Source of the DNA: a virus | Lineage: Duplodnaviria; Heunggongvirae; Uroviricota; Caudoviricetes | Direction: 5' to 3' (one strand) | Virus record (IMG/VR): IMGVR_UViG_3300020429_000539 | Location: 44,263 to 108,262 of that record | DNA: 64,000 bases | Shown here: piece after piece, positions 9,709 to 40,011 of the stretch | Layout of the letters: the number at the start of each line of letters is the position of its first letter | Numbering within the stretch: position 1 is the first letter of the stretch | The notes under the pieces: generated by a model | Seen by the model: the letters and a program-made list of their open reading frames with translations, nothing else | Database searches by the model: none | What the model was told of the DNA's origin: nothing | Position numbers and translations under genes: made by a program

Positions 9709-9755
9709 CAGGGCAGGAGGGACTCGAACCCCCGACATTCGAATTAGAAGTTCGG
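9709..9755 (-). pseudogene. 3' half of a split tRNA-Arg(UCU)
   Basis: CTAA-TTCGA-ATGTC-GGGGG-TTCGAGT-CCCTC-CTGCCCT-G; the acceptor strand pairs with the 5' half at 10611-10645. Confidence 0.8.
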
Positions 9756-9962
9756 CCACTTGAAAGATGGTAGAGTGTTATTTTGTAGAACTTTTATGGT
9801 TTCTTGTTCTTTGTTTATATGCACACTAAATTTAAGTTGCCTTCGATGCTTTGTCGTAGTAGATAGATAGATATAAAGATAATCTTTACAGACTTCTACT
9901 TTTTCAATGGCTTCAGGATTAACCGAAAAGCCTCTATTTTCAATAGGTATCATTATGGTCAT
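9744..9962 (-). CDS. hypothetical protein inside the split-tRNA insertion
   Basis: 72 aa; start overlaps the HNH stop, and its TAA lies in the anticodon loop of the 3' half. Confidence 0.5.
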   Translation of the reverse strand: MTIMIPIENRGFSVNPEAIEKVEVCKDYLYIYLSTTTKHRRQLKFSVHINKEQETIKVLQNNTLPSFKWPNF

Positions 9963-10477
9963 TCCAATACTCCCTGTGGGTTATGTAATTCAGCATGACA
10001 ATTGCGACAAACTAGGTCGCATTTGGCAAGCTCTTTGTCAATATCTACCTGTTTTCTGGTTCGTAGCTTGTTCCATTGGAACTCTTTTGTACTGCCATTT
10101 CTATGATGAAACTCAAGTGCAGCATAGTTCTTATTATATCCACAAATCGAGCAGCCTCCCCCTTTTTGTTTGATGGCTTCAATTTTTCGCTTTTGCCACC
10201 TTTCAACGCAGTATGCATTAAAGCAGGATTTGCAATAAGAGAGCAATCTATTTGTTTTTCCCTTAGTATTAAATTGGTCAAACGATTTTTCTTCTTTACA
10301 TCTGGCGCATGTTTTTGTAGTATTTGATATTCTATGTATCTGTTTTGTATTATGTTCCCCAAAAGGAGAACATTGAAGACAGTATTTTCTGTTTTGGAGG
10401 TTTCTTTTTTTGTCATCTACTACAATAGACGCTGGTATATTTTCACCGCAATTGCGACACTGGTTAGCCATAAGCAT
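9959..10477 (-). CDS. HNH endonuclease
   Basis: Several CxxC fingers; ALEFHHR...KCDLVCRNCHAELH. Confidence 0.85.
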   Translation of the reverse strand: MLMANQCRNCGENIPASIVVDDKKRNLQNRKYCLQCSPFGEHNTKQIHRISNTTKTCARCKEEKSFDQFNTKGKTNRLLSYCKSCFNAYCVERWQKRKIEAIKQKGGGCSICGYNKNYAALEFHHRNGSTKEFQWNKLRTRKQVDIDKELAKCDLVCRNCHAELHNPQGVLE

Positions 10478-10537
10478 TCTCCTTGAATACTTATTGCTAG
10501 CCTAACCGGATAATACCTTTATGTCTAATCTAGAAAA

Positions 10538-10610
10538 TAGGTCCACTGGGATTCGAACCCAGAATATCGGTTTAGAAGACCGATGTGATATCCGGTTTCA
10601 CCATAGACCC
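10538..10610 (-). tRNA. tRNA-Arg(UCU), replacement copy
   Basis: GGGTCTA/TGGACCT acceptor; TCGGT-CTTCTAA-ACCGA anticodon arm; CTGGG-TTCGAAT-CCCAG T arm. Confidence 0.85.
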
Positions 10611-10645
10611 AAATCCGACGCTCTGTCCAACTGAGCTACTGCCCC
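10611..10645 (-). pseudogene. 5' half of the split tRNA-Arg(UCU)
   Basis: GGGGCAG-TA-GCTC-AGTTGGACA-GAGC-G-TCGGA-TTT, ending at anticodon position 34. Confidence 0.8.
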
Positions 10646-10650
10646 GTGGG

Positions 10651-11676
10651 TTAGGCTTTTGCTGTCTGCTTGACTTGTTCAGCCACCCATTGATAGGTCA
10701 AGGTCATTCCTTCTCGTGTAGAAATACTAGGCGACCACCCAAGAACCTTTTGAATCAGTGTGTTATCGCTTGCCCTGCCGTCTGCGCCTGTTGCGCCCTC
10801 AACATGCTGCTTTTCGATGTTTTTGCCAGCGATTTCAGCAACAAGGTCAACAAACTCATCAATTGTGTATATCTCGTCTGAGCCGATATTGATAGGCTCA
10901 TGAAAATCAGAGCGAGTCAATCGCCAAATGCCTTCAATAGCGTCTGCGATGTAGCAGAAGGTTCGTCGTTGTTTTCCGTCTCCCCAGACTTCAATGCTGC
11001 CAGATTCTCCCTCGACTTCAGCAACCTTGCGAGAGATAGCAGCAGGCACCTTTTCTCTGCCACCTGTCCAGGAGCCGTGAGGACCGTAGATAGCATGGAA
11101 TCGGGCGACATAGACAGGAATGCCGTGGTCTTCCATAAAGTTGAGGCACATGCGTTCGCTAAACAGTTTCTCCCAGCCGTATCCGTCTTCAGCTTCGGCA
11201 GGATACGCCATGTCTTCGGTTAGCCCCTTGCCATTATCAAGGTCAGTTTTCTTGTTGCCGTAGATGCAGGCTGAGCTTGCGTAGAAATATTTGTTGGGCT
11301 TATGAATTCGGGCGCATGCATCGAGCAGGTGGGTATTGATGAGGACGTTGAGCATGCAATCGGCCTTGTAGTCGGTGATAAAGCCGATACCGCCCATGTT
11401 ACAGGCGAGATTGAAGACCTCTTCTGGTTTGATTTGCTCGATGATGCGGTCGCAGTTTTCTCGTAGGGTCAGGTCGGTGTTATCGATATTATGGACTCGA
11501 CCTGAGGTATCGGCTTGCCACCACTCATCGAGAGGCTTTATGTCTACCGCAGCAACGCGGAAGCCTTTGTTTACCAGAAACTTGACAAGGTGGCCTCCGA
11601 TGAATCCACCTGCTCCGCAGACGAGGGCATCGTATGTATTAAACATGGGTTCGTTCGCCTCTGTTAAATCTTCCAT
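10651..11676 (-). CDS. NAD-dependent nucleotide-sugar epimerase (GDP-mannose 3,5-epimerase-like)
   Basis: LVCGAGGFIGGH Rossmann motif; YASSAC; YGWEKLFSE (YxxxK). Confidence 0.9.
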   Translation of the reverse strand: MEDLTEANEPMFNTYDALVCGAGGFIGGHLVKFLVNKGFRVAAVDIKPLDEWWQADTSGRVHNIDNTDLTLRENCDRIIEQIKPEEVFNLACNMGGIGFITDYKADCMLNVLINTHLLDACARIHKPNKYFYASSACIYGNKKTDLDNGKGLTEDMAYPAEAEDGYGWEKLFSERMCLNFMEDHGIPVYVARFHAIYGPHGSWTGGREKVPAAISRKVAEVEGESGSIEVWGDGKQRRTFCYIADAIEGIWRLTRSDFHEPINIGSDEIYTIDEFVDLVAEIAGKNIEKQHVEGATGADGRASDNTLIQKVLGWSPSISTREGMTLTYQWVAEQVKQTAKA

Positions 11677-11790
11677 CTGTGTTCCTAAGAATAACTGATT
11701 TTGGGTTCACTCTCAAGGAGTTCTTGTACGAATTTGTATTTATAAGTGTCACTTGGTGTACCACCTCATTGCTAAAAGGAGAAAGCATAG

Positions 11791-12144
11791 ATGCCCAAGC
11801 ACACTAAAGGTTTTATCGGCGGTCTTATCGGTTTTGGCCTAGGCCTTGTTGTATCGTTTTCGCTTACGGTTGCTGTTCGCAGCGCTTACAACCACGCAAC
11901 GGCTGAGTTCGATGATAGTCGAGAAATCGACACTATCGGCATGGCTTATCGCTCTCTACTCAATATGCCTGAATACACAGCAAGCGTGCCGTTTGTTGAA
12001 GTAGACATTGACTCAAATGGGGAAACTGTTTATTGCGCAACAAAGCTATCGCATGCTGTTCTACCTGTTATAGAAGAAGGCTCTAAAGAGGGTTGCTGCG
12101 GTTCTGATTGTGGTAATTGCATCGCAGTTGAATGCAGGCAATAA
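11791..12144 (+). CDS. hypothetical membrane-anchored protein
   Basis: AAAGGAG SD; N-terminal TM helix; Cys-rich C-terminus; followed by a hairpin and T tract. Confidence 0.6.
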   Translation: MPKHTKGFIGGLIGFGLGLVVSFSLTVAVRSAYNHATAEFDDSREIDTIGMAYRSLLNMPEYTASVPFVEVDIDSNGETVYCATKLSHAVLPVIEEGSKEGCCGSDCGNCIAVECRQ

Positions 12145-12195
12145 CACATTCTTTTTCTACTCCTTACCTAACCGTAAGGAGTCGTTTTATTTGCT

Positions 12196-12513
12196 TTAAT
12201 TACTGGTCTTTTTGGAATTTGCTTTTCTTGCAGCAATCCGTTTTTCTTCTCTGATGACCATAACTGCGCCTGCAATCATATGAGCGATTCCCCACAAGCA
12301 GACGCCACCAGCAATGGTATAAGCCATCAACTCGGATGCGGTTATCATCGCGACCAGAGGCATGGTCGCTGTAGCGCAAAGAATGAGCAATGCGCCAAAG
12401 CAAAAGTTCTCAGCATGGCTGTGATAGAAGTTGCGAAACACAGGTCCAACGACGTACCAGTGAATAGGCTTCGTCCAGTTGGGCATTCTCATGATAAATG
12501 ATGAAATTGACAT
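12196..12513 (-). CDS. small membrane protein
   Basis: Two hydrophobic helices; AAGGAG SD and promoter motif upstream. Confidence 0.6.
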   Translation of the reverse strand: MSISSFIMRMPNWTKPIHWYVVGPVFRNFYHSHAENFCFGALLILCATATMPLVAMITASELMAYTIAGGVCLWGIAHMIAGAVMVIREEKRIAARKANSKKTSN

Positions 12514-12567
12514 ACATGCTCCTTATGGGGCATTATATCATGCTTTAGCTTTCACCTGTATAAGATT

Positions 12568-13038
12568 TTAGTTATCTGATTCCAAACGACCTGTTCGGCC
12601 TTTGAGCTTGGCAAGCTTCGATTCGATATTACGAACTTTAGAATCTATTGCCATACCTTGTTCAATAATATTGACAACAGACCTCATGGATTCGGCTATG
12701 TCGTCTTTAACGATATAGTCGGTAAGTCCAAGCTTCATGGCCGTGACAGCTACATTTTCATTGCCTTTACCTGTGAACATTACGATAGGAGTAAGGTCAT
12801 CTCTTTTGCGAACAGCCTTGATGATTTCTAAACCAGATTCGCCTGGTAAGATGTAATCAAGTATGTAGCAATCAAATCCATTTTTGTGAGCTTCAATATG
12901 CGCAAGAGCATCTTCTGCATTATTAAATCTAACAATATCTGCATCGATAATGCTGTTTAGGTTTCGCTCGATACTCATAAAATCTACATCATCGTCTTCG
13001 ACGACCATGAGTCTATAACTGTTCTTATTTTCTGTCAT
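12568..13038 (-). CDS. response regulator (receiver domain)
   Basis: MVVEDD, ILDYILPGESG (phospho-Asp), MFTGKG, YIVK. Confidence 0.9.
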   Translation of the reverse strand: MTENKNSYRLMVVEDDDVDFMSIERNLNSIIDADIVRFNNAEDALAHIEAHKNGFDCYILDYILPGESGLEIIKAVRKRDDLTPIVMFTGKGNENVAVTAMKLGLTDYIVKDDIAESMRSVVNIIEQGMAIDSKVRNIESKLAKLKGRTGRLESDN

Positions 13039-13444
13039 TTGGAACCTCACAAATAGACCAATAAGCATTGATAGTCTTGAGTATATCAACAAAGTCATCA
13101 AACTGTAGGGGTTTGATGACATAACCTTGTATACCTGTATCGTAGGCTGTGTCTTTGTCTGATTCTTCCGTAGATACTGTCATTACGATAACAGGTACTT
13201 TGTTGTACTCGGGATGGCTTCTGAGTAGCTTAAGAAACTCATGACCTCCCATCTGAGGCATGCTGAGGTCTAAGAAAATAATGATTGGATGCTCGATTTC
13301 GCCGCTTGTCAATATTTGCCAAGCCTCTGCTCCATCCTTGGCGCGTATAATAGGATTAATGATATTGATTTTTTGAAGAGAACGCTCGACATTCATGAAG
13401 TCAACGTCGTCATCTTCAATGACAAATATATTAAATCTCCTCAT
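13025..13444 (-). CDS. single-domain response regulator (Rcp1-like)
   Basis: VIEDD, FLDLSMPQMGG, VMTVS, YVIKP. Confidence 0.9.
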   Translation of the reverse strand: MRRFNIFVIEDDDVDFMNVERSLQKINIINPIIRAKDGAEAWQILTSGEIEHPIIIFLDLSMPQMGGHEFLKLLRSHPEYNKVPVIVMTVSTEESDKDTAYDTGIQGYVIKPLQFDDFVDILKTINAYWSICEVPNDRK

Positions 13445-13445
13445 A

Positions 13446-15026
13446 CTATCTCTCTCTCTTGGGCCAGGTGAAGTAAAAGGTACTTCCTTTACCTATTTGT
13501 GAAGAAACTCTAACGTTTCCTCCGAGTTGTGTTACAATTCTTTTGACAAGAGCGAGGCCAACGCCTACACCTTCTCCATCATCTTTAGGTGTTAGTTTAC
13601 TGAACATATCAAAAATCTTGTCATGGAACTTTTTATCGATTCCTTTGCCATTATCTTTGACATAAAACTCATAGAACTTTTCATTATCGCTACAGCCTAT
13701 TTTAATTGACGGTACTTCAGAATCGTTGTATTTTATAGCATTATCAACAAGATTGGATATTACCTGGGTAAAACGGGTTTGGTTGCCATAGATTACAGGC
13801 ATATTTTTGACATTGAACTCAGCGTTTCGACCTATCATTCCAATAACATTTTGGATCGCTTCTTGAGTATCGAACTCCTCTACTTCTGTGTCTTGCCTCC
13901 CGATGCGAGAGTATTCGAGCAGCCCATCTATTAGTTTCTGCATACGACCAGTTCGTTCGCGTAGTAGTCCGAGTTTGTGAGCTATATCTGGATCTATTGC
14001 TGTGCCTATATCCTCGGCGATCCATTGAGATAGATTGTCTATACCTCGTAGCGGCGCTTTCAAGTCATGAGAAATAGCATAAGCAAATGATTCAAGTTCT
14101 TGATTAGATTGTAGAATATCAGATTTGATATCTAGCATATCTTGGTCGCTTTGTTTTTGATCAGTTATATCAATAACTTCTACAATAAAATGCAGGTTTT
14201 TACCCTGTCTATCACGTATCATACTAACAGTTATTTCTACCCAAACAATATGTCCGTTTTTGTGTATATATCGCTTTTCAAGCGTGTAGTTATCTATTTT
14301 ATTATCTATCGTCTGTTGAACGAGATAAAGGTCTGTGTTAAGGTCATCTTTGTATGTTATGTCCTGAAAAGTCATATTCATCAGTTCAGATTCATCATAA
14401 CCCAAAATTTCATATAGTCTTGGGTTAGCCTTGATAAATCGGCCATCAAGAGCAACGTGGCATTTGCCTATTCTGGAATATCGGAATAGATTTTCTAGCA
14501 GGTCTCTTTCTGTTTTTGCTTTTTTTAGGGCTTGGATGCCCTCTGGCATTAGTTTAGCAGTTACCGCAAAAGCTATTAGCGAAATGATGGCTGTAAAAGT
14601 ATGCCATAAAGCAAGAAACCTGTAAATAGGCCAGTAAAAAATGGATGCATCTATTGCGTGACCAACGCCGCAAAGCATAATAAACAGGGCGAACAGCCAT
14701 AGCACTCCATTATATGATGAGCCTTGATTGCGTATGTAGTAAATAATAAGAGCAGATATTGCTATATAAGCTAAGCTAGTCGCTATATTGGCGCAGATAA
14801 AGAGCCAGCCTGTGAAGGCTGACCAGTTACCACAATTCCATCTTGCAGGATAATCAGATGTATCGAATAGTTTAGCGATGAACCATCCGTTATTGTCTGA
14901 TGCTGCGTAACTTACGCACAGGTCACAATCGTTAGCCTTTTCGGATATTGTCGATTGTGCAATAGACAAGCTTGCAGATGATATCGCTAATACGAGACAA
15001 GCAAAAACAAAGGCTTTTTTGAACAT
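13446..15026 (-). CDS. membrane sensor histidine kinase (TM sensor, PAS, HisKA, HATPase)
   Basis: H box FAYAISHDLKAPL; N box NLVDNAIKY; G boxes VKDNGKGI and GVGVGL; PAS-PAC segment; ETR1-like TM motif FIMLCGVGH. Start moved to ATG 15026 because the longer ORF overlaps a tRNA. Confidence 0.9.
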   Translation of the reverse strand: MFKKAFVFACLVLAISSASLSIAQSTISEKANDCDLCVSYAASDNNGWFIAKLFDTSDYPARWNCGNWSAFTGWLFICANIATSLAYIAISALIIYYIRNQGSSYNGVLWLFALFIMLCGVGHAIDASIFYWPIYRFLALWHTFTAIISLIAFAVTAKLMPEGIQALKKAKTERDLLENLFRYSRIGKCHVALDGRFIKANPRLYEILGYDESELMNMTFQDITYKDDLNTDLYLVQQTIDNKIDNYTLEKRYIHKNGHIVWVEITVSMIRDRQGKNLHFIVEVIDITDQKQSDQDMLDIKSDILQSNQELESFAYAISHDLKAPLRGIDNLSQWIAEDIGTAIDPDIAHKLGLLRERTGRMQKLIDGLLEYSRIGRQDTEVEEFDTQEAIQNVIGMIGRNAEFNVKNMPVIYGNQTRFTQVISNLVDNAIKYNDSEVPSIKIGCSDNEKFYEFYVKDNGKGIDKKFHDKIFDMFSKLTPKDDGEGVGVGLALVKRIVTQLGGNVRVSSQIGKGSTFYFTWPKRER

Positions 15027-15106
15027 AACTCTCATTTCTAGAAGTGAATTCGTACACAGAATTCTTCTAGACAGAAAGTATAAAACCTTGTTATTGTTGT
15101 CGGAAA

Positions 15107-15178
15107 TCCGCCCGGAGGGATTCGAACCCCCGGCCAATTGGTTAAAAGCCAACTGCTCTACCGCTGAGCTACGGGCGG
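15107..15178 (-). tRNA. tRNA-Lys(UUU)
   Basis: Canonical cloverleaf; GTTGG-CTTTTAA-CCAAT. Confidence 0.9.
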
Positions 15179-15185
15179 CTAATGA

Positions 15186-15443
15186 TTATGCTGCGCTGTC
15201 AAGAACCTTCTCGCCAGCAAGCTGCCTGCGAATCGCAAAAATGAGAGCGTCAACCTGCTCGCTGGTCAGCCTCTTGTTGTCCTTCGTGCGAACAAAGACC
15301 GGCAGATGTTTGACAAGCTCTTCCTCTGTCACGAGGGCATTGATTTCGTCTTCCGAAAGAGACTGCGCCGCTGCCCTAGCCTGATTGGCGCGCTCAATCT
15401 TTTCTGCTCTACGTCTTTCCATTTCTTGACGGTCCATTTTCAT
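15186..15443 (-). CDS. hypothetical protein
   Basis: 85 aa; ATGA overlap with the upstream ORF. Confidence 0.55.
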   Translation of the reverse strand: MKMDRQEMERRRAEKIERANQARAAAQSLSEDEINALVTEEELVKHLPVFVRTKDNKRLTSEQVDALIFAIRRQLAGEKVLDSAA

Positions 15444-15655
15444 TCGATTTCCTTTATGAGACGTTCAAGCTCTTCTTCCGCTGCTTTCATCGCGTCATCG
15501 CATTCATTGTAGTAATCAAGCATGACGCCAGTATCGCCAACGATGACGTTTGCTGTCCAGCCTTTTTTATCTAGAAACACACCTGCCCCGCGAAACTCGG
15601 TGCCTGTTTTCCAAGTGTCATCTCGTTCATCGAATGACCATTTATGATCGCTCAT
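15440..15655 (-). CDS. hypothetical protein
   Basis: 71 aa; ATGA overlaps on both sides. Confidence 0.55.
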   Translation of the reverse strand: MSDHKWSFDERDDTWKTGTEFRGAGVFLDKKGWTANVIVGDTGVMLDYYNECDDAMKAAEEELERLIKEIE

Positions 15656-16098: not shown

Positions 16099-16353
16099 TG
16101 TGTTCCGCCGCTATGCGGCAGACAGGGCAGGGGTTCGCCTAGTCAACAGGGCTTCGCCTTTGTCCTGAATGCCTTTTCGCCAGATGACGACAGCAGCAAA
16201 GCCTGTGACAGCCGCGTAAGGGCAGATGGGAGCCAAAGCTGCTGATGCCAATAGAGCGATTCCGAGTGATGCTTTTCGAGTAATCTGTGTCATTTTTGAC
16301 CTCCTGCCATTATATCGGCAAGAAGCTTTCACCCGTAACACTATTCACTCGAT

Positions 16354-17116: not shown

Positions 17117-17180
17117 TGGTCTGCTCCTTTTCCTTGCATTGTAGCACGGTTTGATTATTCACCTGAATCATGAAGCTACG

Positions 17181-30873: not shown

Positions 30874-30903
30874 TTGACCAGGTCGGATTCGAACCGACTA
30901 CCT
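30874..30903 (-). pseudogene. 3' part of a split tRNA (CAU)
   Basis: AGGTA-GTCGG-TTCGAAT-CCGAC-CTGGTCA-A; the acceptor strand is complementary to TGACCAG at 31519-31525. Confidence 0.8.
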
Positions 30904-31347
30904 GGATTTAGCCCAGCCAAATTGCTTAGCTGTTTTTCGCATATGACAGTTGGCACAGCGAAGTTCGCATTTGGCAATTTCTTTTTCAATCGTAGACCAT
31001 GAGTAGCACTGTGAGATCATTACAGATATAATCTCTTTCTTCTTTCCGCGAACATGGTCAAAGTGTAAAACAACAGGATCATTTTCTCCGCAATCCACAC
31101 AAGCTTTGCCAGAAAGGTACTCTATAAGCTTGTTTCTGTTAGATTCAATTTGTTTCTTAGAATGCCGTCTAGCTCTATCTTTGTAGATTTCTTTGTTTTC
31201 TTCGTAGTGTTTTTTAGAAGCTTGATTTGTGCAACTTCTACATCGAGAATGATATAGCTTTCTTTTCTTATCTTTGAAATTGAACTCTTTGGTAGACTTC
31301 GTTTTTTGACATCCAGAACAAGTTTTTGTATCCATGATTACCTCCAA
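30898..31347 (-). CDS. HNH endonuclease
   Basis: CxxC fingers; CVDCGENDPVVLHFDHVRG...KCELRCANCHMRK. Confidence 0.9.
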   Translation of the reverse strand: MEVIMDTKTCSGCQKTKSTKEFNFKDKKRKLYHSRCRSCTNQASKKHYEENKEIYKDRARRHSKKQIESNRNKLIEYLSGKACVDCGENDPVVLHFDHVRGKKKEIISVMISQCYSWSTIEKEIAKCELRCANCHMRKTAKQFGWAKSR

Positions 31348-31487
31348 GGATACTTTTCTTGCAAAGACTTGAATGTCTTTCTTTTATTTTGAATCTACAA
31401 AGAAGTAATAGGGCTACTCGGATTCGAACCGAGAACCTCGGAATTATGAGTTCCTTGCTCTGCCGTTGAGCTATAACCCCACGCGCA
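30904..31487 (-). mobile_element. HNH cassette carrying a replacement tRNA(CAU), inserted in a tRNA(CAU) gene
   Basis: Bounded by complementary tRNA pieces; contains an intact CAU tRNA and an HNH gene. Confidence 0.7.
31409..31480 (-). tRNA. tRNA(CAU), Met or Ile2; replacement copy
   Basis: GGAA-CTCATAA-TTCC; CTCGG-TTCGAAT-CCGAG. Confidence 0.85.
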
Positions 31488-31525
31488 TTATGAGTCGGGC
31501 GCTTAGCCGCTCAGCGCACTGGTCA
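31488..31525 (-). pseudogene. 5' part of the split tRNA(CAU)
   Basis: TGACCAG-TGCGCTGAGCGGCTAAGCG-CCCGA-CTCATAA-T, then breaks off. Confidence 0.8.
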
Positions 31526-32422: not shown

Positions 32423-32548
32423 ACTCGCCGTCAGGATTCGAACCTGAAACTCCCCATTAGCAGTGGATAACCGTCAAACTATCGACTCCGAAGAGTAAGG
32501 CAGTGCCCAACGATGTTTTTTGGCGTTTTACCATTAAACTACAGCGAG
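32423..32548 (-). ncRNA. tRNA-shaped RNA containing a permuted Y-RNA-like module
   Basis: Acceptor CTCGCTG/CGGCGAG, D and T arms intact; insert CCTTA-CTC-TTCG-GAG-TCGATAG...GGTTATC. Confidence 0.7.
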
Positions 32549-32656: not shown

Positions 32657-32662
32657 GTAAAA

Positions 32663-32740: not shown

Positions 32741-32746
32741 AACTAA

Positions 32747-32818
32747 ATCCCCCTCCCGGATTCGAACCGAGTTATCTGGCATACGAGGCCAGCGCATCTC
32801 CTACTATGCTTAGAGGGA
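32747..32818 (-). tRNA. tRNA-Thr(CGU)
   Basis: CTGGC-CTCGTAT-GCCAG. Confidence 0.8.
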
Positions 32819-33322: not shown

Positions 33323-33360
33323 GTCTATGTTTTCAGAAGAAACGCAATAAAGCCTCTAAA

Positions 33361-33463
33361 TCCGGCAGCGGGAGTCGAACCCGCAACTCAGGTTGTCAAG
33401 ACCTGACAGACGGGGCACGGTGGCACATAACCGTCACGGCTTTACCTATTAAGCTACACCGGC
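33361..33463 (-). tRNA. tRNA-like RNA with a UGA (Ser) anticodon arm and an about 30-nt insert after the D arm
   Basis: TCAGGT-CTTGACA-ACCTGA; insert GACGG-TTAT...CCGTC between the D and anticodon arms. Confidence 0.55.
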
Positions 33464-34176
33464 ATGTTTGCCTGATAGCCAAGAAACTCAACCACTTCTT
33501 TATCTAGCAGAGAAGATAGTAGGTCCAGTGTCTTGCCATCGAAGCATGATAGGTATTGCTGTTGAGTGTACCATTCCGTGCCATCGAACCGCTCATTAGA
33601 TTCGATGCCATTTGTACCAACAATACCCTTGACAGTATATCGGCTATCAGCGTATTCCAAGCCAAATCGTTCTAGCTGAGAATCGTAATCCAATAACCAA
33701 TCTTCGTAGCGTATGAATACGCTATTTCTTTTTCCTCTCGCCCACTCTATCCATCCGCGATAGAGCCTATTCCATCGCAGAGCGAAGTCGATTGCGTCTT
33801 CTTCTCTGATATGTCTTACAGAGTATTTGAATGATTGAGCATAGGGCTTTTCATATAGCTTTTCTCGATAGTTGATGAAGCTGACGCAAGAAGCGAATGG
33901 ATTCTTGGCAACGAACACATATCGTATTCGGTTGCTCAAATAGGCGATGGTCATTTCAGGGGTTACGGAGTTTTCTAGTTTTTTCGCGTACCTGCGTGAC
34001 GACCAGTCTGGGTCCCAAGAACGGCTCGATGTGTCGATTTCATTCGGTATCGGGCCGTGCTTCCATCCAAACAGGTTCTTCAAACATTTGACGTTTTTGA
34101 AGCTGTTTGAGAGGATGATATCGGTGAGGTTGGTGCCTGACCTCTGTATGCCATATGTCTTGACGTAGATGGTCAT
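33454..34176 (-). CDS. sulfotransferase-like protein
   Basis: YGIQRSGTN, FVAKNPF, FIRYED. Confidence 0.7.
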   Translation of the reverse strand: MTIYVKTYGIQRSGTNLTDIILSNSFKNVKCLKNLFGWKHGPIPNEIDTSSRSWDPDWSSRRYAKKLENSVTPEMTIAYLSNRIRYVFVAKNPFASCVSFINYREKLYEKPYAQSFKYSVRHIREEDAIDFALRWNRLYRGWIEWARGKRNSVFIRYEDWLLDYDSQLERFGLEYADSRYTVKGIVGTNGIESNERFDGTEWYTQQQYLSCFDGKTLDLLSSLLDKEVVEFLGYQANMPV

Positions 34177-34192
34177 ACTCGTTTATCGGAAA

Positions 34193-34263
34193 ATCCCCCT
34201 GCCGGATTTGAACCGACACTACTTGAGTACAAAACAAGCGTGCTGCATTGACACTAAGAGGGA
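34193..34263 (-). tRNA. tRNA-Thr(UGU)
   Basis: CTTG-T-TTTGTAC-T-CAAG; T arm GTCGG-TTCAAAT-CCGGC. Confidence 0.7.
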
Positions 34264-34267
34264 GACA

Positions 34268-34572
34268 TCAGTCCAATATCTCTGATTGGTCTGGTTGGGA
34301 TGGCTGAGACTTATTCAACTGTTCGTATCTTTCTCGCTGCGCTTTTTCTTTGATAGATTGCTTGAGCGTACGAACCTCATCATCAGTCATCCATTCTTTC
34401 ATGCTTTTCATGTATGAAGACAGTTCATTAGCAGATTGTAAATTGATTAGCTTTAGCCAACCATGGTTTTCTCTGATTTCGAACAAATATTCTTGCCAAA
34501 AATCATCGTAAGCTATATTGTTTCTTACAAAAGGAACACAATCTTTTGTTCGATGGTCTGCTTCATACATCA
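34268..34572 (-). CDS. hypothetical protein
   Basis: MMYEADHRTK... (start trimmed to avoid the tRNA; 5' end approximate). Confidence 0.5.
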
Positions 34573-34587
34573 TGTACCTTTCTAGAA

Positions 34588-34660
34588 AGCCTGCGAGAGG
34601 ACTCGAACCCCCGACCGGAGCTTTACAAAAGCTCTGCTCTACCAACTGAGCTACACAGGC
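34588..34660 (-). tRNA. tRNA-Thr(UGU)
   Basis: GAGCT-TTTGTAA-AGCTC. Confidence 0.9.
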
Positions 34661-34667
34661 AAAAACA

Positions 34668-34758
34668 GAATGAGTAAGTTATGCAGATAGGCTCGTGGGA
34701 GTCGAACCCACAGCGCCGAAGCGCCTACATCAGGTAACCTAAAAGCTTCGACTCATTC
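34668..34758 (-). ncRNA. Y-RNA-like RNA with a tRNA T-arm minihelix
   Basis: Terminal stem GAATGAG/CTCATTC; GTCGAAG...GGTTAC; 3' CTTAC; internal GTGGG-TTCGACT-CCCAC. Confidence 0.7.
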
Positions 34759-34998
34759 GTTTTTCTTTTTCAGTTTATCGACCATTTCTTGAGCGGAGCC
34801 AATCAATGCGCCGATGGCGCTTAGATGTTCAGGGAAAGGATGCTGACCGTTGCTAGAGGCATGGTAATCTTGAAGCATACCTCCAAAATGCTTTTCAGCG
34901 CGGTCTATAACTCCCTGCCAGTGCTTGATTATTGCTGATTGGCTTTCGCTCATAACTGTATGTTCTTCAGGTTGCCAAGGGTAACGTGATATCCCCAC
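34753..34998 (-). CDS. hypothetical protein
   Basis: Short ORF whose stop overlaps the Y-like RNA start. Confidence 0.45.
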   Translation of the reverse strand: MGISRYPWQPEEHTVMSESQSAIIKHWQGVIDRAEKHFGGMLQDYHASSNGQHPFPEHLSAIGALIGSAQEMVDKLKKKNE

Positions 34999-35339
34999 GG
35001 TTTCTTGGGCAATCCCAGTTCTTTTCTGATTTCATCAAGGCGAGGACATTGAACGTCAATCCAAAATGACCTGCCATCTGTATCGACCTTCGGCTCGAAG
35101 GTAAACCACACGACCTCGTTGTCATACGGTTTCATCTCATCGAGTCCTACTACTCGGCTGTCCTTTTCTCCCGCGAGAAACGTGATGTGACAGCCGTTCA
35201 TTGGAAGTTGCCACGGCATTCCACGTTTGGATTGAAACCAGTTGTAGTAGGCTGCGAAGTCATCGCATACGTCAACGCCATACCAGCCAGGCTTTTGCCC
35301 TGTGCGTTTGATATCGATGTGTCCGTATGCTTGAAGCAC
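34950..35339 (-). CDS. 2H phosphoesterase family protein
   Basis: Two HxT motifs: GCHITFL and GYHVTLG. Confidence 0.75.
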   Translation of the reverse strand: MLQAYGHIDIKRTGQKPGWYGVDVCDDFAAYYNWFQSKRGMPWQLPMNGCHITFLAGEKDSRVVGLDEMKPYDNEVVWFTFEPKVDTDGRSFWIDVQCPRLDEIRKELGLPKKPWGYHVTLGNLKNIQL

Positions 35340-35374
35340 GAACCATTATAGGCTTTTGATGCTTCACTCGAAAG

Positions 35375-35450
35375 TAGTCCCGAGAGGACTTGAACCTCCA
35401 CATGACCCTGGGTGTAAACCAGGCGCTCTGGCCAATTGAGCTACGGGACC
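35375..35450 (-). tRNA. tRNA-Val(UAC)
   Basis: CCTGG-TTTACAC-CCAGG. Confidence 0.9.
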
Positions 35451-35475
35451 AAATGCGCCCGAAGGCGCTTGTGTG

Positions 35476-35817
35476 TTAGAGTTTATCTATCTGGCAGTCA
35501 GATGCAACAACATGGTTGCGAACCTGAATGTCAGATATGTCTGCGTTATCTGCGATATGAACCTTCGAGAAGCAGCAGCATTCTCCGTAAGGGTCATATG
35601 GGTCTACTGCGCCGCAACAGTATGGGTCATACGGATCGTATGGATCATACGGATCTCCGTCGTGACATGCGCAGCCGTTTGTATGGTTTTCTACGACGAA
35701 ACAAAGGCCGTAGACGTTGCAGAGCTTGTTGTATTGCACGAGGAATGCTTCGATTTGCTGTGGTGTTGCCATAAGATGTTTTCTCCTGTAAAAGCGAATC
35801 AGATGGTTGCTGTTCAC
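35476..35817 (-). CDS. Cys-rich small protein with DPY tandem repeats
   Basis: CHDG(DPY)4CCGAV(DPY)2GECCCF. Confidence 0.5.
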   Translation of the reverse strand: MNSNHLIRFYRRKHLMATPQQIEAFLVQYNKLCNVYGLCFVVENHTNGCACHDGDPYDPYDPYDPYCCGAVDPYDPYGECCCFSKVHIADNADISDIQVRNHVVASDCQIDKL

Positions 35818-35862
35818 TTATGAGGAAACGTCGAGGCAAACCTTTGTTGCGTCTCAAATAAA

Positions 35863-35947
35863 TTGGGCCGACAGGACTCGAACCTGCATAGGACTTTTCG
35901 TCCCCCGATTATCAGTCGGGTGCTTAACCAATTCAGCGCACGACCCA
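35863..35947 (-). tRNA. tRNA-Ile(GAU) with a long variable arm
   Basis: CCCGA-CTGATAA-TCGGG followed by GGAC-GAAAA-GTCC. Confidence 0.8.
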
Positions 35948-35955
35948 AACTAAAG

Positions 35956-36027
35956 TCCACCTAGCAGGACTTGAACCTGCGACACATCGGTTATCAGCCG
36001 ATTGCTCTGCCACTGAGCTATAGGTGG
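35956..36027 (-). tRNA. tRNA-Ile(GAU)
   Basis: ATCGG-CTGATAA-CCGAT. Confidence 0.9.
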
Positions 36028-36031
36028 GAAA

Positions 36032-36104
36032 CTCCCCGAGCAGGGCTCGAACCTGCGACACGGTGGTTAACAGCCACCCGCTCTACCAACTGAGCTATCG
36101 GGGA
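36032..36104 (-). tRNA. tRNA-Asn(GUU)
   Basis: GGTGG-CTGTTAA-CCACC. Confidence 0.9.
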
Positions 36105-36107
36105 AAC

Positions 36108-36228
36108 AGAACAGATAAGGGGTTAGCATTGGCGTTTTTACCCCCAGCATTTCTTGCTTCACAGACAAGCGCTTTGGGCATTTTGAATAAGGATCAAAGT
36201 GATAACCAAAAACTATTCGACCTGTTCT
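36108..36228 (-). ncRNA. Y-RNA-like RNA (linear type)
   Basis: Stem AGAACAGG/TCTGTTCT; GTCGAATAG...GGTTATC; 3' CCCTTA. Confidence 0.7.
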
Positions 36229-36232
36229 AAAA

Positions 36233-36315
36233 AGACTGGTGTGGGATTCGAACCCACGTAGGGGACATGCCCCGCAGGTTAACAGCCTGCCGCTTAACCG
36301 CTCAGCCAACCAGTC
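36233..36315 (-). tRNA. tRNA-Asn(GUU) with a long variable arm
   Basis: GCAGG-CTGTTAA-CCTGC followed by GGGG-CATGT-CCCC. Confidence 0.8.
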
Positions 36316-36319
36316 AAAC

Positions 36320-36434
36320 TTGCAAGTAAGGGAGTGGTAACGGAAATGCCCCCAAAGGGCGCTTCCCCATGAGTTGTGAAAGCGGGGAAGATAAGAGTCG
36401 AACTTACAGATAACCGTCGCCTATCGACTTGCAA
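36320..36434 (-). ncRNA. YrlA-like Y RNA (Ro stem, T arm, loop-closed acceptor-like stem, D-like arm)
   Basis: TTGCAAG/CTTGCAA stem; GTCGATAG...GGTTATC; GTAAG-TTCGACT-CTTAT; CTTCCCC/GGGGAAG closed by a loop; CCCTTAC. Confidence 0.75.
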
Positions 36435-36549
36435 ATATCTTATTTGCCTAGGGAAAACACCTGATTGTTATACAGTAATGGATATTCCTAAAGGCTCTGA
36501 AGCCTAGCAATCTCAACTAGAAACACGAGATTGTTTTGAAAGGGAATCA

Positions 36550-37467
36550 ATGACACGAAACTGTATGACTTTCAACTGTAGACCAGGCTTCAGCCATTGG
36601 GACCAAAATCTAGGACTAAACCGAAGATGGGCCTCAGATGACGAGGATTTGTTTCCATGGCTTGAGGACAACTTAGATGCCGCGTTTGACGCGGGTATCA
36701 GAGAGTTCAAGTTCCAACTACCAACAGGTAAATACCGTTGGGAAGTCGAGCAGCCCTTCGTGATGGCCTCTCGTTTTCCTGTAGGAAGACTCAAGAACTT
36801 GGAGGCCCTCTTTGGTAAGTATCGTTCTCAAGACGCTGATGTCACCTTTACAGTCCGTTCTGGCTTTTGGTTCTCTCACTACGATGATACAACAGGAGAT
36901 GTTATCTCGAACAGAGGCAGCAAGGCTTACTGGCCTATCAACGCACAGTCCGAAACAGATGAAGACTTTGACCGTGCTATGGATTACTTGGCCGGTCTCG
37001 TCGAAGGGCTGAATCCAACCTTTGACGCCATTGATTTTGACGCTTTGTGCTGGCTTGGCTGGGAGAAGACTTCCGTTGTTCTTGAAGCTCTCAACGAACG
37101 ACTAAACTTCCGTTACATAGGCGGAGAGTTGCCTGGTCCTTACGCTTTTAAGAATGGCTCCAACGAAGAGTGGTTTGATGTTGTTGAGAACTTTATGCCA
37201 GAGAAAACTCGCTGGTCTATAAAGGGCATTCATAGGCTCAATAACCGAATGCACCGCAATCCTCGTGTCTGGGTCTTTGACAATGAAAAGACAGATGAGA
37301 TTGTGAGGGCTGGTGTCAATATCGACTATTGGTCAGGTAGCTACCAAGATAGCATCGGAGACAAGCTTGTTGACAAATCAAGTCGCATCATCAATGCTAA
37401 GGCTGTTCGCATTAGTTCCGCGAGGGTAAGCGGTTCTATAAGGAACGTTGCTCGTAAGCGATTGTAA
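36550..37467 (+). CDS. hypothetical protein, paralogous to 8398-9582, on the opposite strand within the tRNA array
   Basis: 305 aa; GIREFKFQLPTGK, AIDFDA, YIGGELP motifs. Confidence 0.6.
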   Translation: MTRNCMTFNCRPGFSHWDQNLGLNRRWASDDEDLFPWLEDNLDAAFDAGIREFKFQLPTGKYRWEVEQPFVMASRFPVGRLKNLEALFGKYRSQDADVTFTVRSGFWFSHYDDTTGDVISNRGSKAYWPINAQSETDEDFDRAMDYLAGLVEGLNPTFDAIDFDALCWLGWEKTSVVLEALNERLNFRYIGGELPGPYAFKNGSNEEWFDVVENFMPEKTRWSIKGIHRLNNRMHRNPRVWVFDNEKTDEIVRAGVNIDYWSGSYQDSIGDKLVDKSSRIINAKAVRISSARVSGSIRNVARKRL

Positions 37468-37468
37468 A

Positions 37469-37540
37469 TACCCCGAGAGGGATTCGAACCCCCGACAAAG
37501 TGGTTAAGAGCCACCTGCTCTGCCGCTGAGCTACCGAGGT
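37469..37540 (-). tRNA. tRNA-Lys(CUU)
   Basis: GTGG-CTCTTAA-CCAC. Confidence 0.9.
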
Positions 37541-37544
37541 AAAA

Positions 37545-37620
37545 GTGGGTTGCCAGAGATTCGAACTCTGAAGACTCCTGGGTAAGAACCAGGTGCTTTA
37601 CCTAATAAGCTTGCAACCCA
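37545..37620 (-). tRNA. tRNA-Lys(CUU)
   Basis: CCTGG-TTCTTAC-CCAGG. Confidence 0.85.
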
Positions 37621-37625
37621 TGAAA

Positions 37626-37699
37626 CGAGGATGAAGGGATTCGAACCCTCAGTCGCCAGATCGACAATCTGGTGCATTAACCGATTATGCTACATCCCC
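37626..37699 (-). tRNA. tRNA-Asp(GUC)
   Basis: CCAGA-TTGTCGA-TCTGG. Confidence 0.9.
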
Positions 37700-37710
37700 A
37701 AAGATGAAAG

Positions 37711-37794
37711 TGGGCCAGACAGGATTTGAACCTGCGCATGTCGCCGGGTTTCAACCGACCGCTCTACCATTGCTTGCGCTTGAGCTACTGACCC
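37711..37794 (-). tRNA. tRNA-Phe(GAA) with an enlarged D loop
   Basis: D loop AAGCGCAAGCAATGGTA (contains a GC-GCAA-GC mini-hairpin); anticodon loop TTGAAAC. Confidence 0.7.
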
Positions 37795-37890
37795 TTTTCT
37801 GGTGGGTTGCAACCCACCAGAGCCCACTTGTCTGCGTTATTTATACTCGTCAAGTGGTCCCACGAGTACGGCCAACCGGCAGCCGTTAAG

Positions 37891-37973
37891 GGTGATCGAC
37901 GGGATTCGAACCCGCATTGTCGTTGCCGACCCTGGACCACAACCAGGTGCATTACCAATCTGCCACGACCACC
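37891..37973 (-). tRNA. tRNA-His(GUG) with a long variable arm
   Basis: Encoded G-1 and C73; CCTGG-TTGTGGT-CCAGG followed by GTCG-GCAA-CGAC. Confidence 0.8.
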
Positions 37974-37979
37974 ATCTAA

Positions 37980-38139
37980 AGACAGGTATCCGCAACTTGA
38001 AGGACCAGAGGAACGGTCGTTTACTCGACGCCTCCGCTCTTGGCTACCCTTCGGGCAAGGGTTCCCGTTTACGCTCACGAGTTCGCTAACGGTTCACCTA
38101 TTGCTTTTGTATAGCGCTGAGCCTCCTGCGCTACTGTCT
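37980..38139 (-). ncRNA. candidate long-hairpin RNA (6S-like?)
   Basis: Nested complementary segments AGACAG/CTGTCT, GGAGG/CCTTC, GAAC/GTTC, CGTT/AACG, ACTCG/CGAGT around an A-rich bubble; fills the gap between two tRNAs. Confidence 0.35.
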
Positions 38140-38144
38140 GAAAG

Positions 38145-38216
38145 GGTGACTGACGGGATTTGAACCCGCATAAGACTGCTTCACAAGCAGTTGCATTACC
38201 AATCTGCCACAGCCAC
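38145..38216 (-). tRNA. tRNA-His(GUG)
   Basis: ACTGC-TTGTGAA-GCAGT; C73. Confidence 0.85.
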
Positions 38217-38218
38217 AA

Positions 38219-38292
38219 TGCCGATAGCAGGACTTGAACCTGCGCTGACGGAGCTTATGAGACTCCCGCTCTACCAACTGAGCTATACCGGC
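38219..38292 (-). tRNA. tRNA(CAU), Met or Ile2
   Basis: GGAG-T-CTCATAA-G-CTCC. Confidence 0.85.
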
Positions 38293-38296
38293 TACT

Positions 38297-38450
38297 GTTA
38301 GAACTTCCCGTAAGCGGGATCCTGTTTTATCCCATCATTTCTCTAGCGGCCCTTACCCGACCATCATTGCGTCACACCCGCGCTCCGGTCTGTTTAGGTT
38401 GCTACCTCTGCGGTCCAAACGGCTGTTTAGGCCTCCCCCATTCGCGAAGT
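38297..38450 (-). pseudogene. 3' part of a split RNase P RNA
   Basis: GAGAAATGATGGG...ACAGGATCCCGCTTAC-GGGAAGTTCTAAC; supplies the P2, P4 and P1 strands complementary to 39936-40011. Confidence 0.75.
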
Positions 38451-38454
38451 GCAG

Positions 38455-38769
38455 CTATACAAGCTGCGAAACGAGATTTCTCGCCAAATCTATGTCATCC
38501 GCATTCAGCATGCGATTGTTTGGCTCGGAAATGAGTAGAACCTTTTCTACTTCCCAGCAGTTATATGCATCCCAATCCCAACCATCATGAGATATTGAAG
38601 AAACGCCTTCATAAGGAGTTGCATTGCCGATGATGAGCATTTTTGGTATAGCAGAACCATCATTCTTGAGGTATATTATCATACCGGGCTGTAGCCCATG
38701 CAGTCGGATAAAATCCCCAAGCATAACTTTTGTCTTCGACAGGTCATGTATGATTTGAGTTTCCATCAT
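38455..38769 (-). CDS. hypothetical protein inside the RNase P insertion
   Basis: 104 aa with a TGAAAGG SD-like sequence upstream. Confidence 0.55.
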   Translation of the reverse strand: MMETQIIHDLSKTKVMLGDFIRLHGLQPGMIIYLKNDGSAIPKMLIIGNATPYEGVSSISHDGWDWDAYNCWEVEKVLLISEPNNRMLNADDIDLARNLVSQLV

Positions 38770-38782
38770 TGCCTTTCATTTA

Positions 38783-39044
38783 TTGGAAAAGAAATAAGCT
38801 CATAGCCAGGGTTCTGTTTCAACCTCTTCATTTATCTCATTCCGAAGAATGGCAAGCGTTTATAGCCTGCTGCCCGCTACCCGCCGGATCGTGCTGCTCA
38901 CCCACTACGGCCTATATGCGGTTAGTCCCTCGGTAGTCCAAACGGCTTATTCAGCCTCCTACCTTGTTAGCAGTGGACCCCTGAACTTCCTCACCAACAT
39001 GGTTTTCCCTTGCGGCGCGAAGAGTCGGCCCATTCCTTTTCCAA
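38783..39044 (-). ncRNA. rnpB: compact RNase P RNA (intact inner copy)
   Basis: 17-bp P1 (TTGGAAAAGGAATGGGC/GCTTATTTCTTTTCCAA); P2 CTCTTC/GAAGAG; P4 GAGGAAGTTCAGGG/ACAGAACCCTGGCTA; AGATAAATGA joining motif. Confidence 0.8.
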
Positions 39045-39889
39045 TTCCTTTGATAACACCTATTAGAACAGAAATAACGACTATTGGTTTCGGTGTCGTA
39101 TTCTACTCCGCATTCTTTACACTTGCGGCCTTTGTAACTCTGCTTAACGATTGAATCCCATTTGTAAGCGAAACAAGACAGAGGACAAGGGCCTATGAAT
39201 TCAAAGAACTCGAAAACACTTCGATTCGGAATCAATATCCTGTTTCTTTGGGCTACGGAAGACTCTACTCCTACTCCTTCGAGTTTGCCCGTCAAGATAT
39301 GCAAGCTTTCACTGTTAAAACTATCTGTGCAAAGCCAAATGCCTCGTTCATTATCAAGACTCCCATCTCCGAGAAACCAATGCAAGGCAGTTAAGGGCTT
39401 CATTGACAAATCTTGAGGCACTTGTTTGCCTTCAGTTGTATACCAGACATTGTGAAGCAATGTCATCGTGGGGCTGTTTCTGGTCCGAAGATAGAATGCT
39501 TTTTTGCAATGAACTTTTCGACCTAGTATTGATGACTCATGAGCTTTCCGACTAGATTTGCGAAGAGGGAAGGACAATGAGTCTGATAGGAAATCACTAT
39601 ACTCCTCATGGATTGAGGCGTGTATTAGTTGGTAGTTCTTTGCCCGGCTTGATTTACTAATACATCCGTCAGATAGTAAAAGACCATTCAGTATTTCTTG
39701 GTCTTCTTGATTCAGTTCGAAGGTATTTTCGGCTTGTATCTTAGCAAACCTGCAATCTTTGCTGCAAAACTTTGTAGCCTTGTCTTTGCGGGCAAGGAAA
39801 GATGTTGAGCAAGATTCACAAGACCTTTCAATAAACTGATGATTACCGTCAGTCCAATGACCAAACTCTGTTTTTCGTAGTTTCCCCAT
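38951..39889 (-). CDS. LAGLIDADG homing endonuclease with zinc-finger termini
   Basis: ILNGLLLSDGCI and ALHWFLGDGSL motifs; CxxC...FCS fingers at both ends; own TATAAT about 25 nt upstream. Confidence 0.85.
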   Translation of the reverse strand: MGKLRKTEFGHWTDGNHQFIERSCESCSTSFLARKDKATKFCSKDCRFAKIQAENTFELNQEDQEILNGLLLSDGCISKSSRAKNYQLIHASIHEEYSDFLSDSLSFPLRKSSRKAHESSILGRKVHCKKAFYLRTRNSPTMTLLHNVWYTTEGKQVPQDLSMKPLTALHWFLGDGSLDNERGIWLCTDSFNSESLHILTGKLEGVGVESSVAQRNRILIPNRSVFEFFEFIGPCPLSCFAYKWDSIVKQSYKGRKCKECGVEYDTETNSRYFCSNRCYQRNWKRNGPTLRAARENHVGEEVQGSTANKVGG

Positions 39890-39935
39890 TGTATTATCCT
39901 TTCTATCAGATATTATACATACAAAGGGGAGAACT

Positions 39936-40011
39936 CCTTCTTGCAGTCCCGACTTTCCTCTCGTCCGTATGGAATCAGTGACGGATAGAGCGATGGGTCG
40001 GAAGTTCTAAC
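39936..40011 (-). pseudogene. 5' part of the split RNase P RNA
   Basis: GTTAGAACTTCC (P1), CCCATC (P2), a P3 hairpin and GAGGAAAGTCGGGAC (P4). Confidence 0.75.

Follow-up and report, generated by a model that had tools for sequence, protein, structure and literature searches.

Candidate selfish cassettes that pair a homing endonuclease with a replacement structural RNA gene in a large phage genome

In a 64,000-nt stretch of phage DNA (hereafter the window, meaning the whole of the stretch analysed; bases 44263-108262 of a virus record of 488,051 bp with direct terminal repeats), three structural RNA genes, namely a tRNA-Arg(UCU), a tRNA(CAU) and an RNase P-like RNA, are each split into two pieces by an insert that encodes both a homing endonuclease and an intact but diverged version of that RNA. 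A preliminary description of the window had reported these three nested cassettes, and the split outer gene, the endonuclease (HNH in the two tRNA cases, LAGLIDADG in the RNase P case) and the intact inner copy were found to be present in each. The endonuclease-plus-RNA modules are conserved units, and some of them interrupt another gene for the same kind of RNA, at a site that recurs. We read them, with a probability of roughly 60%, as selfish cassettes that act at the DNA level and home by replacement, each coupling a homing endonuclease to a working structural RNA gene of its own.

All cassette features lie on the minus strand, as do the 42 tRNA genes and the single transfer-messenger RNA (tmRNA) gene of the window. 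Genome-wide, ~70 tRNA genes were counted, and the phage is contained in marine metagenome runs from 6 studies. tRNA genes were called with ARAGORN (introns allowed, and with the inner tRNA masked for the outer genes), Rfam and partial tRNA matches by nhmmer. The first cassette, in the tRNA-Arg(UCU) gene, is made up of the following features, among them two open reading frames (ORFs).

10611-10645, minus strand: 5' half of the outer tRNA-Arg(UCU), positions 1-34 (sequence; partial tRNA match by nhmmer, E 0.009; ARAGORN with the inner tRNA masked).
10538-10610, minus strand: inner intact tRNA-Arg(UCU) (ARAGORN; Rfam, 63.8 bits).
9959-10477, minus strand: HNH homing endonuclease ORF, 172 aa (phrog_2255, E 1.2e-44).
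9744-9962, minus strand: 72-codon ORF (ORF list).
~9709-9747, minus strand: 3' half of the outer tRNA-Arg(UCU), ~positions 35-73 (nhmmer, E 1.6e-4; cloverleaf on rejoining).

The outer 5' half stops at U34 and the inner tRNA-Arg begins on the very next base. When the inner tRNA was masked, ARAGORN returned a single tRNA-Arg(tct) interrupted at position 35 by 863 nt, and the rejoined outer halves give a full cloverleaf. The inner and outer tRNAs share 61% identity, and the inner tRNA shares 73% with a tRNA-Arg(UCU) that neighbours a related HNH gene in another phage contig (L001). A TT(T) is common to both ends of the insert. Neither Pfam nor PHROG matched the 72-codon ORF, and the fetched loci contained no homologue of it.

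The second cassette lies in a tRNA(CAU) gene.

31487-31525, minus strand: 5' part of the outer tRNA(CAU), with the acceptor strand, D arm, and 5' strand and loop of the anticodon stem (sequence; masked ARAGORN).
31408-31481, minus strand: inner intact tRNA(CAU) (ARAGORN; Rfam, 64 bits).
30898-31335, minus strand: HNH homing endonuclease ORF, 145 aa (phrog_2255, E 1.3e-32).
30874-30905, minus strand: 3' part of the outer tRNA(CAU), with the T arm, acceptor 3' strand and a degraded anticodon stem strand (nhmmer, model positions 44-71).

Here the masked ARAGORN call was a tRNA-Met(cat) with a 571-nt insert, of which ~70 nt remain besides the inner tRNA and the ORF. The final codons and the TAG stop of the HNH ORF lie inside the 3' part of the outer tRNA, and the junctions show ~10 nt of imperfect match. 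The HNH proteins of these two cassettes both belong to phrog_2255 and are 33% identical to one another. They mark the only two kilobase-scale split tRNA genes that were accepted genome-wide; the third such ARAGORN call in the genome, a split tRNA-Tyr, was rejected as a false positive.

The third cassette interrupts an RNase P-like RNA gene.

39936-40011, minus strand: 5' piece of the outer RNase P-like RNA, with P1, P2, P3 and a canonical CR-I motif (sequence; aligns with the 5' part of uninterrupted relatives).
38951-39889, minus strand: LAGLIDADG homing endonuclease ORF, 312 aa, with CxxC-rich ends (PF03161, E 1.2e-17; phrog_11023, E 2e-30).
38787-39036, minus strand: inner complete compact RNase P-like RNA, 250 nt, with the variant CR-I GAGGAAGTTCAGGG and a compensated P4 (Rfam RF00010; covariation in the family alignment).
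38455-38769, minus strand: 104-codon ORF (ORF list).
38297-38454, minus strand: 3' piece of the outer RNase P-like RNA, from just past P4/J4-5 to a CR-V-like motif and the P1 3' strand (sequence; aligns with the 3' two thirds of uninterrupted relatives).

The canonical CR-I of the outer 5' piece reads GAGGAAAGTCGGG. The outer pieces pair through a perfect 12-bp P1 and through P2, and combined they tile the full length of uninterrupted relatives in the alignment; it is on P1, P2 and this tiling that the argument for their pairing rests, the cofold energy of the two pieces against shuffled sequences having been uninformative (z -1.1 and -0.2). Complementary outer pieces, which the preliminary description had seen in every cassette, are thus found for the RNase P-like RNA and, as a full cloverleaf, for the tRNA-Arg; the tRNA(CAU) is less clean, with 3/5 anticodon-stem pairs formed on rejoining. 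The LAGLIDADG ORF scores 64.8 bits against PF03161 (cut-off 25) and is the sole LAGLIDADG_2 match in the genome. The inner RNA lacks most of the specificity domain and scores 53.2 bits (E 1.6e-13) against the whole RF00010 model, which describes bacterial type A RNase P RNA, below its gathering score of 100. CTGCA is repeated at both ends of the insert. The 104-codon ORF matched neither Pfam nor PHROG families and lacked homologues in every locus fetched.

The LAGLIDADG ORF and the inner RNA share 86 nt, at the 3' end of the former. Since this overlap (~86 nt, covering P1-P3 of the RNA) is conserved between contigs (38951-39036 in the window, 1379-1465 in L004 and ~2440-2507 in L013), one stretch of DNA encodes both protein and RNA.

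The genome also carries two tRNA genes with the anticodon CTA, which read the TAG stop (2280-2356 of the window and 40480-40552 of G000). TAG terminates both the HNH ORF of the tRNA(CAU) cassette and the 104-codon ORF of the RNase P cassette; its read-through would extend the former by 17 codons, across the 3' part of the outer tRNA.

A fourth locus, which had been proposed as a partial case of the same design, holds up as such in the tmRNA gene, where an HNH gene is followed by a short repeat of the tmRNA 3' end.

5906-6258, minus strand: intact tmRNA gene with the tag ANSNTLRMAA (ARAGORN; Rfam RF00023, 101 bits).
5085-5855, minus strand: HNH-type endonuclease ORF, 256 aa, immediately downstream of the tmRNA (phrog_3322 endonuclease, E 6e-17).
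5068-5083, minus strand: displaced 16-nt remnant repeating the tmRNA 3' end, namely the acceptor 3' strand plus some of the T arm (repeat search against 5906-5921, 88%).

No 5' piece is present at this locus. In the 3/3 closest homologue loci of this HNH protein that were looked up, a tmRNA lies 45-80 nt upstream of the endonuclease gene.

The arrangements recur in other phage contigs, as the preliminary description would lead one to expect: the RNase P version was found in L006, L013 and L014, with a remnant in L004, and the tRNA version in L072 and L078. For the RNase P version, 13 homologues of the LAGLIDADG protein were identified in a large protein collection, and nine places were fetched. 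Counted by contig group, eight besides that of the window place a LAGLIDADG relative next to a mini RNase P RNA. Homologues with 34-52% identity have a mini RNase P-like RNA no more than ~300 nt away in L004, L005, L006, L009, L010, L013 and L014; no RNase P-like RNA was detected by Rfam in L007/L008, where the LAGLIDADG protein is 34% identical. L006 is a second full nested case, in which an outer 5' piece with canonical CR-I is followed by an ORF, the endonuclease, a complete inner copy and an outer 3' piece whose P1 and P2 strands are complementary to those of the 5' piece. L014 resembles L006 and holds the inner copy and the 3' piece. In L013, the break after the outer 5' piece falls at AAGG|A, as it does in the window; the leader of the cassette is homologous, and the inner copy begins where the endonuclease ORF ends. 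The L004 ORF and a 218-nt RNase P-like RNA (56 bits, again below the RF00010 gathering score of 100) overlap, and a CR-I-like remnant lies just upstream of the ORF. The endonuclease adjoins a single RNase P-like RNA, with no nesting, in L005, L009 and L010. The insertion site just 3' of CR-I is common to the window, L006 and L013.

The copies inside and outside the cassettes differ at CR-I. All intact copies adjacent to an endonuclease carry a variant CR-I (GAGGAAGTTCA, GAGGAACTTCA or GAGGTAAGCTC), with the opposite strand of P4 changed to match, and all interrupted copies are canonical. This division into classes lends indirect support to an enzyme that would cut the outer type and spare its own allele. 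A pattern search also found mini RNase P genes that are canonical and unbroken, and that have no neighbouring LAGLIDADG gene, in five distinct contigs of huge phages (L044-L050), some of them flanked by tRNA genes as the outer gene of the window is. Across 14 phage sequences, the CR-I and CR-V motifs form a P4 with a bulged U that is supported by covariation between the CR-I classes (column pair 68/283 is GC in 6, AU in 5 and CG in 3), and 16/26 predicted pairs of the alignment show compensatory change. Because P4 covaries and the pairs show compensatory change, both CR-I classes look like working RNAs. The variant CR-I was also considered as an exclusive mark of endonuclease-linked copies and rejected, as L051 and L052 carry the variant with no LAGLIDADG gene nearby.

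Taken together, these RNAs form a compact huge-phage family of ~200-280 nt that lacks most of the specificity domain (38787-39036 in the window, L004-L006, L009, L010 and L044-L052); with the Rfam RNase P models its members reach 18-56 bits, short of the gathering scores, and they show strong covariation. Our literature search found no paper describing such a family. In the flanks of L005 and L006, the module lies among RNA-repair genes, which encode an RNA ligase (PF09414), a Tpt1-type 2'-phosphotransferase (PF01885), RNase T and RNase H.

The HNH relatives are similarly associated with tRNA genes. Relatives of the HNH gene of the tRNA-Arg cassette are located in phage tRNA arrays, and among 80 metagenome loci of phrog_2255 HNH relatives a tRNA lies within 2.5 kb in 69 and within 250 nt in 64. 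An alignment of 10 relatives shows the Cys/His residues of the metal-binding and catalytic motif (C79, C82, H94, C123, C127, C130 and H131) to be invariant. Two of these loci are nested. In L078, a tRNA-Lys(UUU) 5' part is followed by an intact tRNA-Lys(UUU), the HNH gene and a 3' part whose acceptor strand is fully complementary, and a 15-nt leader is repeated before the outer and the inner tRNA. In L072, the order is tRNA-Asp(GUC) 5' part, HNH, intact tRNA-Asp(GUC) and 3' part. L075 has a tRNA, the HNH gene and a 3' remnant, an order like that of the tmRNA locus. As a control for split-tRNA calling, reversed sequence gave 2 calls in 271 kb versus 6 in the real loci; only L078 among those 6 spans an HNH gene, and L072 came from the partial-tRNA matches. 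ARAGORN split calls in L015, L017 and L019 were rejected as false positives. The sequence comparisons support a tie of each endonuclease family to its own RNA type elsewhere, and the inner copies look functional.

Two further loci with an HNH gene have unusual layouts. In L067 (2303-2408), a tRNA 3' half is followed after 15 nt by a 5' half with a pairing acceptor strand, in permuted order and just upstream of an HNH gene; this may be a trace of two overlapping events. In L115 (2378-3073), an HNH gene has a different tRNA-Arg(TCT) gene on either side and a pair of orphan T-arm remnants upstream, which may reflect a decayed or repeated invasion.

Substitution rather than splicing, as had been proposed, fits the observations because a complete second copy lies inside the inserts, no ribozyme was matched in Rfam and little room (the ~70 nt) is spare in the tRNA(CAU) insert. 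Rfam searches gave no intron or ribozyme family at E<=1 across the window, and no group I or group II intron or other ribozyme at E<=10 over 9650-10700 and 38280-40060; on the strength of these permissive searches, a self-splicing intron was rejected. At the tRNA-Arg junctions, by reading, the four possible registers leave the intron ends A, C, T and T, with no terminal G, and, by eye and with no formal search, no 4-bp helix could be drawn between the flanks that would give a bulge-helix-bulge.

These negative results weigh against the idea that the outer genes still work at the RNA level, whether through removal of the insert and joining of the halves or through assembly of the RNase P pieces in trans via P1, P2 and P4, as with introns or genes in pieces. 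In favour of it, M1 RNA can be reconstituted in vitro from fragments, and the outer RNase P pieces retain conserved motifs and remain complementary in P1, P2 and P4; an RtcB RNA ligase (349 bits) is encoded by the phage, processing of the inner tRNA-Arg by RNase P would place the end of the outer 5' half precisely at U34, and the 30-60-nt inserts near the anticodon of several genomic tRNAs hint at processing of RNA. However, besides the missing ribozyme, intron-terminal G and bulge-helix-bulge, the outer tRNA(CAU) is unable to form a full anticodon stem, the outer gene of L004 has decayed to a remnant, and with a complete inner copy present the outer one need not function. The analysis turned up no positive sign that the halves are rejoined. 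We therefore consider RNA-level rejoining or assembly very improbable.

The full-length RtcB gene lies outside the window (G000:C1:133085-134212) and may have a role in tRNA repair. The small inserts, in or near the anticodon arm, were called as long tRNAs by ARAGORN (introns allowed) and Rfam at 40392-40511, 40028-40151, 33360-33463, 32423-32546 and 37711-37794 of the window and at 621-748 and 176900-177022 of G000; one example is a tRNA-Met(CAT) with a 48-nt insert. They could be scars or small inserts related to the cassettes.

Nor are the layouts readily explained as artefacts of assembly, a concern raised in the preliminary description. The record is a metagenome assembly with many similar short RNA genes, so that similar tRNA or RNase P sequences from different phages might have been mis-joined. 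Against this, all four junctions of the tRNA(CAU) and RNase P cassettes are covered with 0 differences by independently assembled Logan contigs from other runs (X7 records 17, 23 and 24; X13 records 9 and 14); these two layouts are therefore not chimeras. The same design is also present in unrelated contigs from JGI, ENA and Logan assemblies, and we regard assembly chimerism as having next to no chance of accounting for the cassettes.

A more serious competitor sees the nested layouts as side effects of break repair. Free-standing endonucleases would break the RNA gene cluster, and microhomology-driven repair or segmental duplication would paste a neighbouring endonuclease-plus-RNA segment into a paralogue, leaving debris that a redundant cluster tolerates, with no homing involved. 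Short repeats at the junctions (TT(T) in the tRNA-Arg cassette, CTGCA in the RNase P cassette and the 15-nt leader in L078) are in keeping with such an origin, as are the documented SegB-dependent tandem repeats of tRNA and truncated segB, which have microhomology at the repeat boundary (PMC13096335). Most loci of the HNH family, furthermore, are not nested, and because the genome holds many duplicate tRNAs, the loss of one copy should cost little. By contrast, the inner and outer genes are always of the same RNA type and anticodon in at least six independent cases (Arg, CAU, Lys, Asp, and RNase P in 2-4 contigs), a match that random pasting among ~40 different tRNAs would rarely give. The RNase P insertions of the window, L006 and L013 are at one site, and the halves of the outer gene match each other and not the inner copy. 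On balance, break repair without homing seems unlikely to us.

Several observations speak against homing by replacement and temper the probability that we give it. No empty allele of the phage was found in the contigs of four runs, and uninterrupted RNase P genes are known at the family level only. No contig in those runs joins across a cassette, a result to be read with the tendency of contigs to drop rare variants; the joints recorded in these contigs are cross-matches whose short sides fall at tRNA-like sequence. The uninterrupted RNase P genes belong to distant phages and came from a pattern search that required the canonical CR-I, and a second pattern search returned variant CR-I genes with no endonuclease in the fetched flank (L051 and L052), so that the CR-I variant may be a lineage trait rather than a change conferring immunity. 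Between contigs the endonucleases share only ~50% identity, and yet the outer RNase P pieces are in good condition, which needs either repeated recent invasions or residual function. For the HNH relatives of the tRNA(CAU) cassette, none of the loci fetched from viral contigs, of which about five are in tRNA arrays, is nested. The junctions are unclean (TT(T), CTGCA and the ~10 nt imperfect match in the three cassettes, respectively), which fits an initial illegitimate insertion equally well as homing. Finally, it is from sequence that we infer which targets the enzymes choose and that the inner copies resist cutting.

Searches for close relatives were also made by other routes. A search through the neighbouring 394-aa protein found no locus, three DNA patterns taken from the window's RNase P copies or cassette, and specific to them, had no match among viral contigs of IMG/VR, and blastn against GenBank phages gave short tRNA and epimerase matches only.

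Under the reading of homing by replacement, the modules would normally be free within the RNA-gene clusters of large phages. Three of them in this genome would have come to lie inside an older, second copy of the same RNA gene and broken it, in the anticodon loop of both tRNAs and just 3' of the CR-I/P4 strand of the RNase P-like RNA, and a fourth would have replaced the tmRNA 3' end and left the old end behind. No splicing would take place; the outer pieces would be remnants, and the phage would depend on the inner copy. In co-infecting relatives, the endonuclease would cut uninterrupted alleles of the outer type, and repair, with the outer pieces as homology arms, would copy the whole cassette into the cut gene much as in intron homing. 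The inner copy of the cassette would escape cutting through its sequence difference near the site. The first insertion might have been illegitimate, which would fit the short repeats at the junctions and the L078 leader.

We also entertain a broader proposal, to which we give slightly less than even odds: that large phages harbour a general class of 'replace, don't splice' elements for tRNA, tmRNA and RNase P RNA, in which the ordinary allele is destroyed and the linked copy, recoded by compensated changes in the helix that the enzyme reads (P4 of RNase P RNA, the anticodon arm of tRNA), is both rescuing and immune. Such elements would constitute a natural cleave-and-rescue drive on non-coding RNA genes.

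If this is so, the mini RNase P RNAs of phages would be a battleground between phages. Carrying a spare copy of the gene would be a third lifestyle for a homing endonuclease in an important gene, beyond introns and inteins, and would carry over to phage genes for tRNA, tmRNA and RNase P-like RNA a logic seen in a small number of protein genes of fungal mitochondria, here with three enzyme lineages in a single genome. It would account for the odd tRNA halves and duplicate tRNAs of phage annotations, and the analysis also points to a family of ~200-280-nt huge-phage RNase P-like RNAs that score below the Rfam threshold. The cassettes probably offer natural enzyme/target pairs with a built-in resistant allele, so that the cleave-and-rescue idea is open to a direct test in vitro.

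The preliminary description had held the architecture to be undescribed. For the RNase P case this is in keeping with our literature search, in which no paper linked a homing endonuclease to an RNase P RNA gene of a phage; it does not stand for the underlying idea, as fungal mitochondria contain genes with replacement ends. In the mobile endonuclease ORFs (mORFs) of Allomyces macrogynus atp6 and Glomus atp6, atp9, cox2 and nad3, a foreign replacement C-terminus has been brought in and the native one left behind (PMC3630166). This is the nearest described class. As in the phage cassettes, an endonuclease ORF (LAGLIDADG or GIY-YIG) lies within the host gene, a diverged foreign copy of the displaced part is brought along while the native part is kept downstream as a remnant, and function is kept via replacement, not splicing; the direct counterpart here is the tmRNA locus, with its new 3' end, HNH gene and old 3' end. 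The hosts of mORFs, however, are protein-coding organelle genes of which only the 3' part is replaced, in frame, whereas the phage cassettes have structural RNA hosts, carry the whole gene in three cases, as a gene within a gene, and involve HNH enzymes.

Among phage systems, the nearest is the free-standing endonuclease SegB of T4, which cuts the tRNA genes of relatives and drives inheritance of its own region (PMC2330249); free-standing phage homing endonucleases and intronless homing have been reviewed (PMC2988022). Both systems place an endonuclease gene among phage tRNA genes, and preferential inheritance of the endonuclease's own region through cutting of relatives' tRNA genes would be shared. 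The non-nested modules of L005, L009, L010 and L058-L060, and most of the HNH loci, are SegB-like in this sense. SegB differs in being a GIY-YIG enzyme encoded between genes that splits no gene and carries no duplicate of its target, whereas the cassettes place the module within the target gene, carry a copy of the same type and use HNH and LAGLIDADG enzymes.

Group I introns with endonuclease ORFs (PMC3984707) share with the cassettes insertion in a tRNA anticodon loop or the core of a structural RNA, the ORF inside and a likely spread via homing into uninterrupted alleles. They differ in that no ribozyme was detected here, the tRNA(CAU) insert is too small for one, and a spare gene takes the place of splicing.

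In phage Aeh1 of Aeromonas, the gene nrdA is reportedly split by mobE. Such genes in pieces, like the fractured genes with split inteins (PMC2677866), have a homing endonuclease gene between gene halves in phage or marine metagenome DNA. Their halves, however, are functional, as a protein complex or by trans-splicing, and come with no spare copy; here, a spare copy is present and functional halves are unlikely.

A further parallel in logic is artificial. ClvR (cleave-and-rescue) is a synthetic, Cas9-based drive in diploid animals that involves no homing. In it, the nuclease eliminates the normal allele, while the essential gene that it attacks is supplied by a linked version recoded to be uncuttable. 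The phage cassettes would embody the same logic in natural form, with the difference that they would spread via homing during co-infection.

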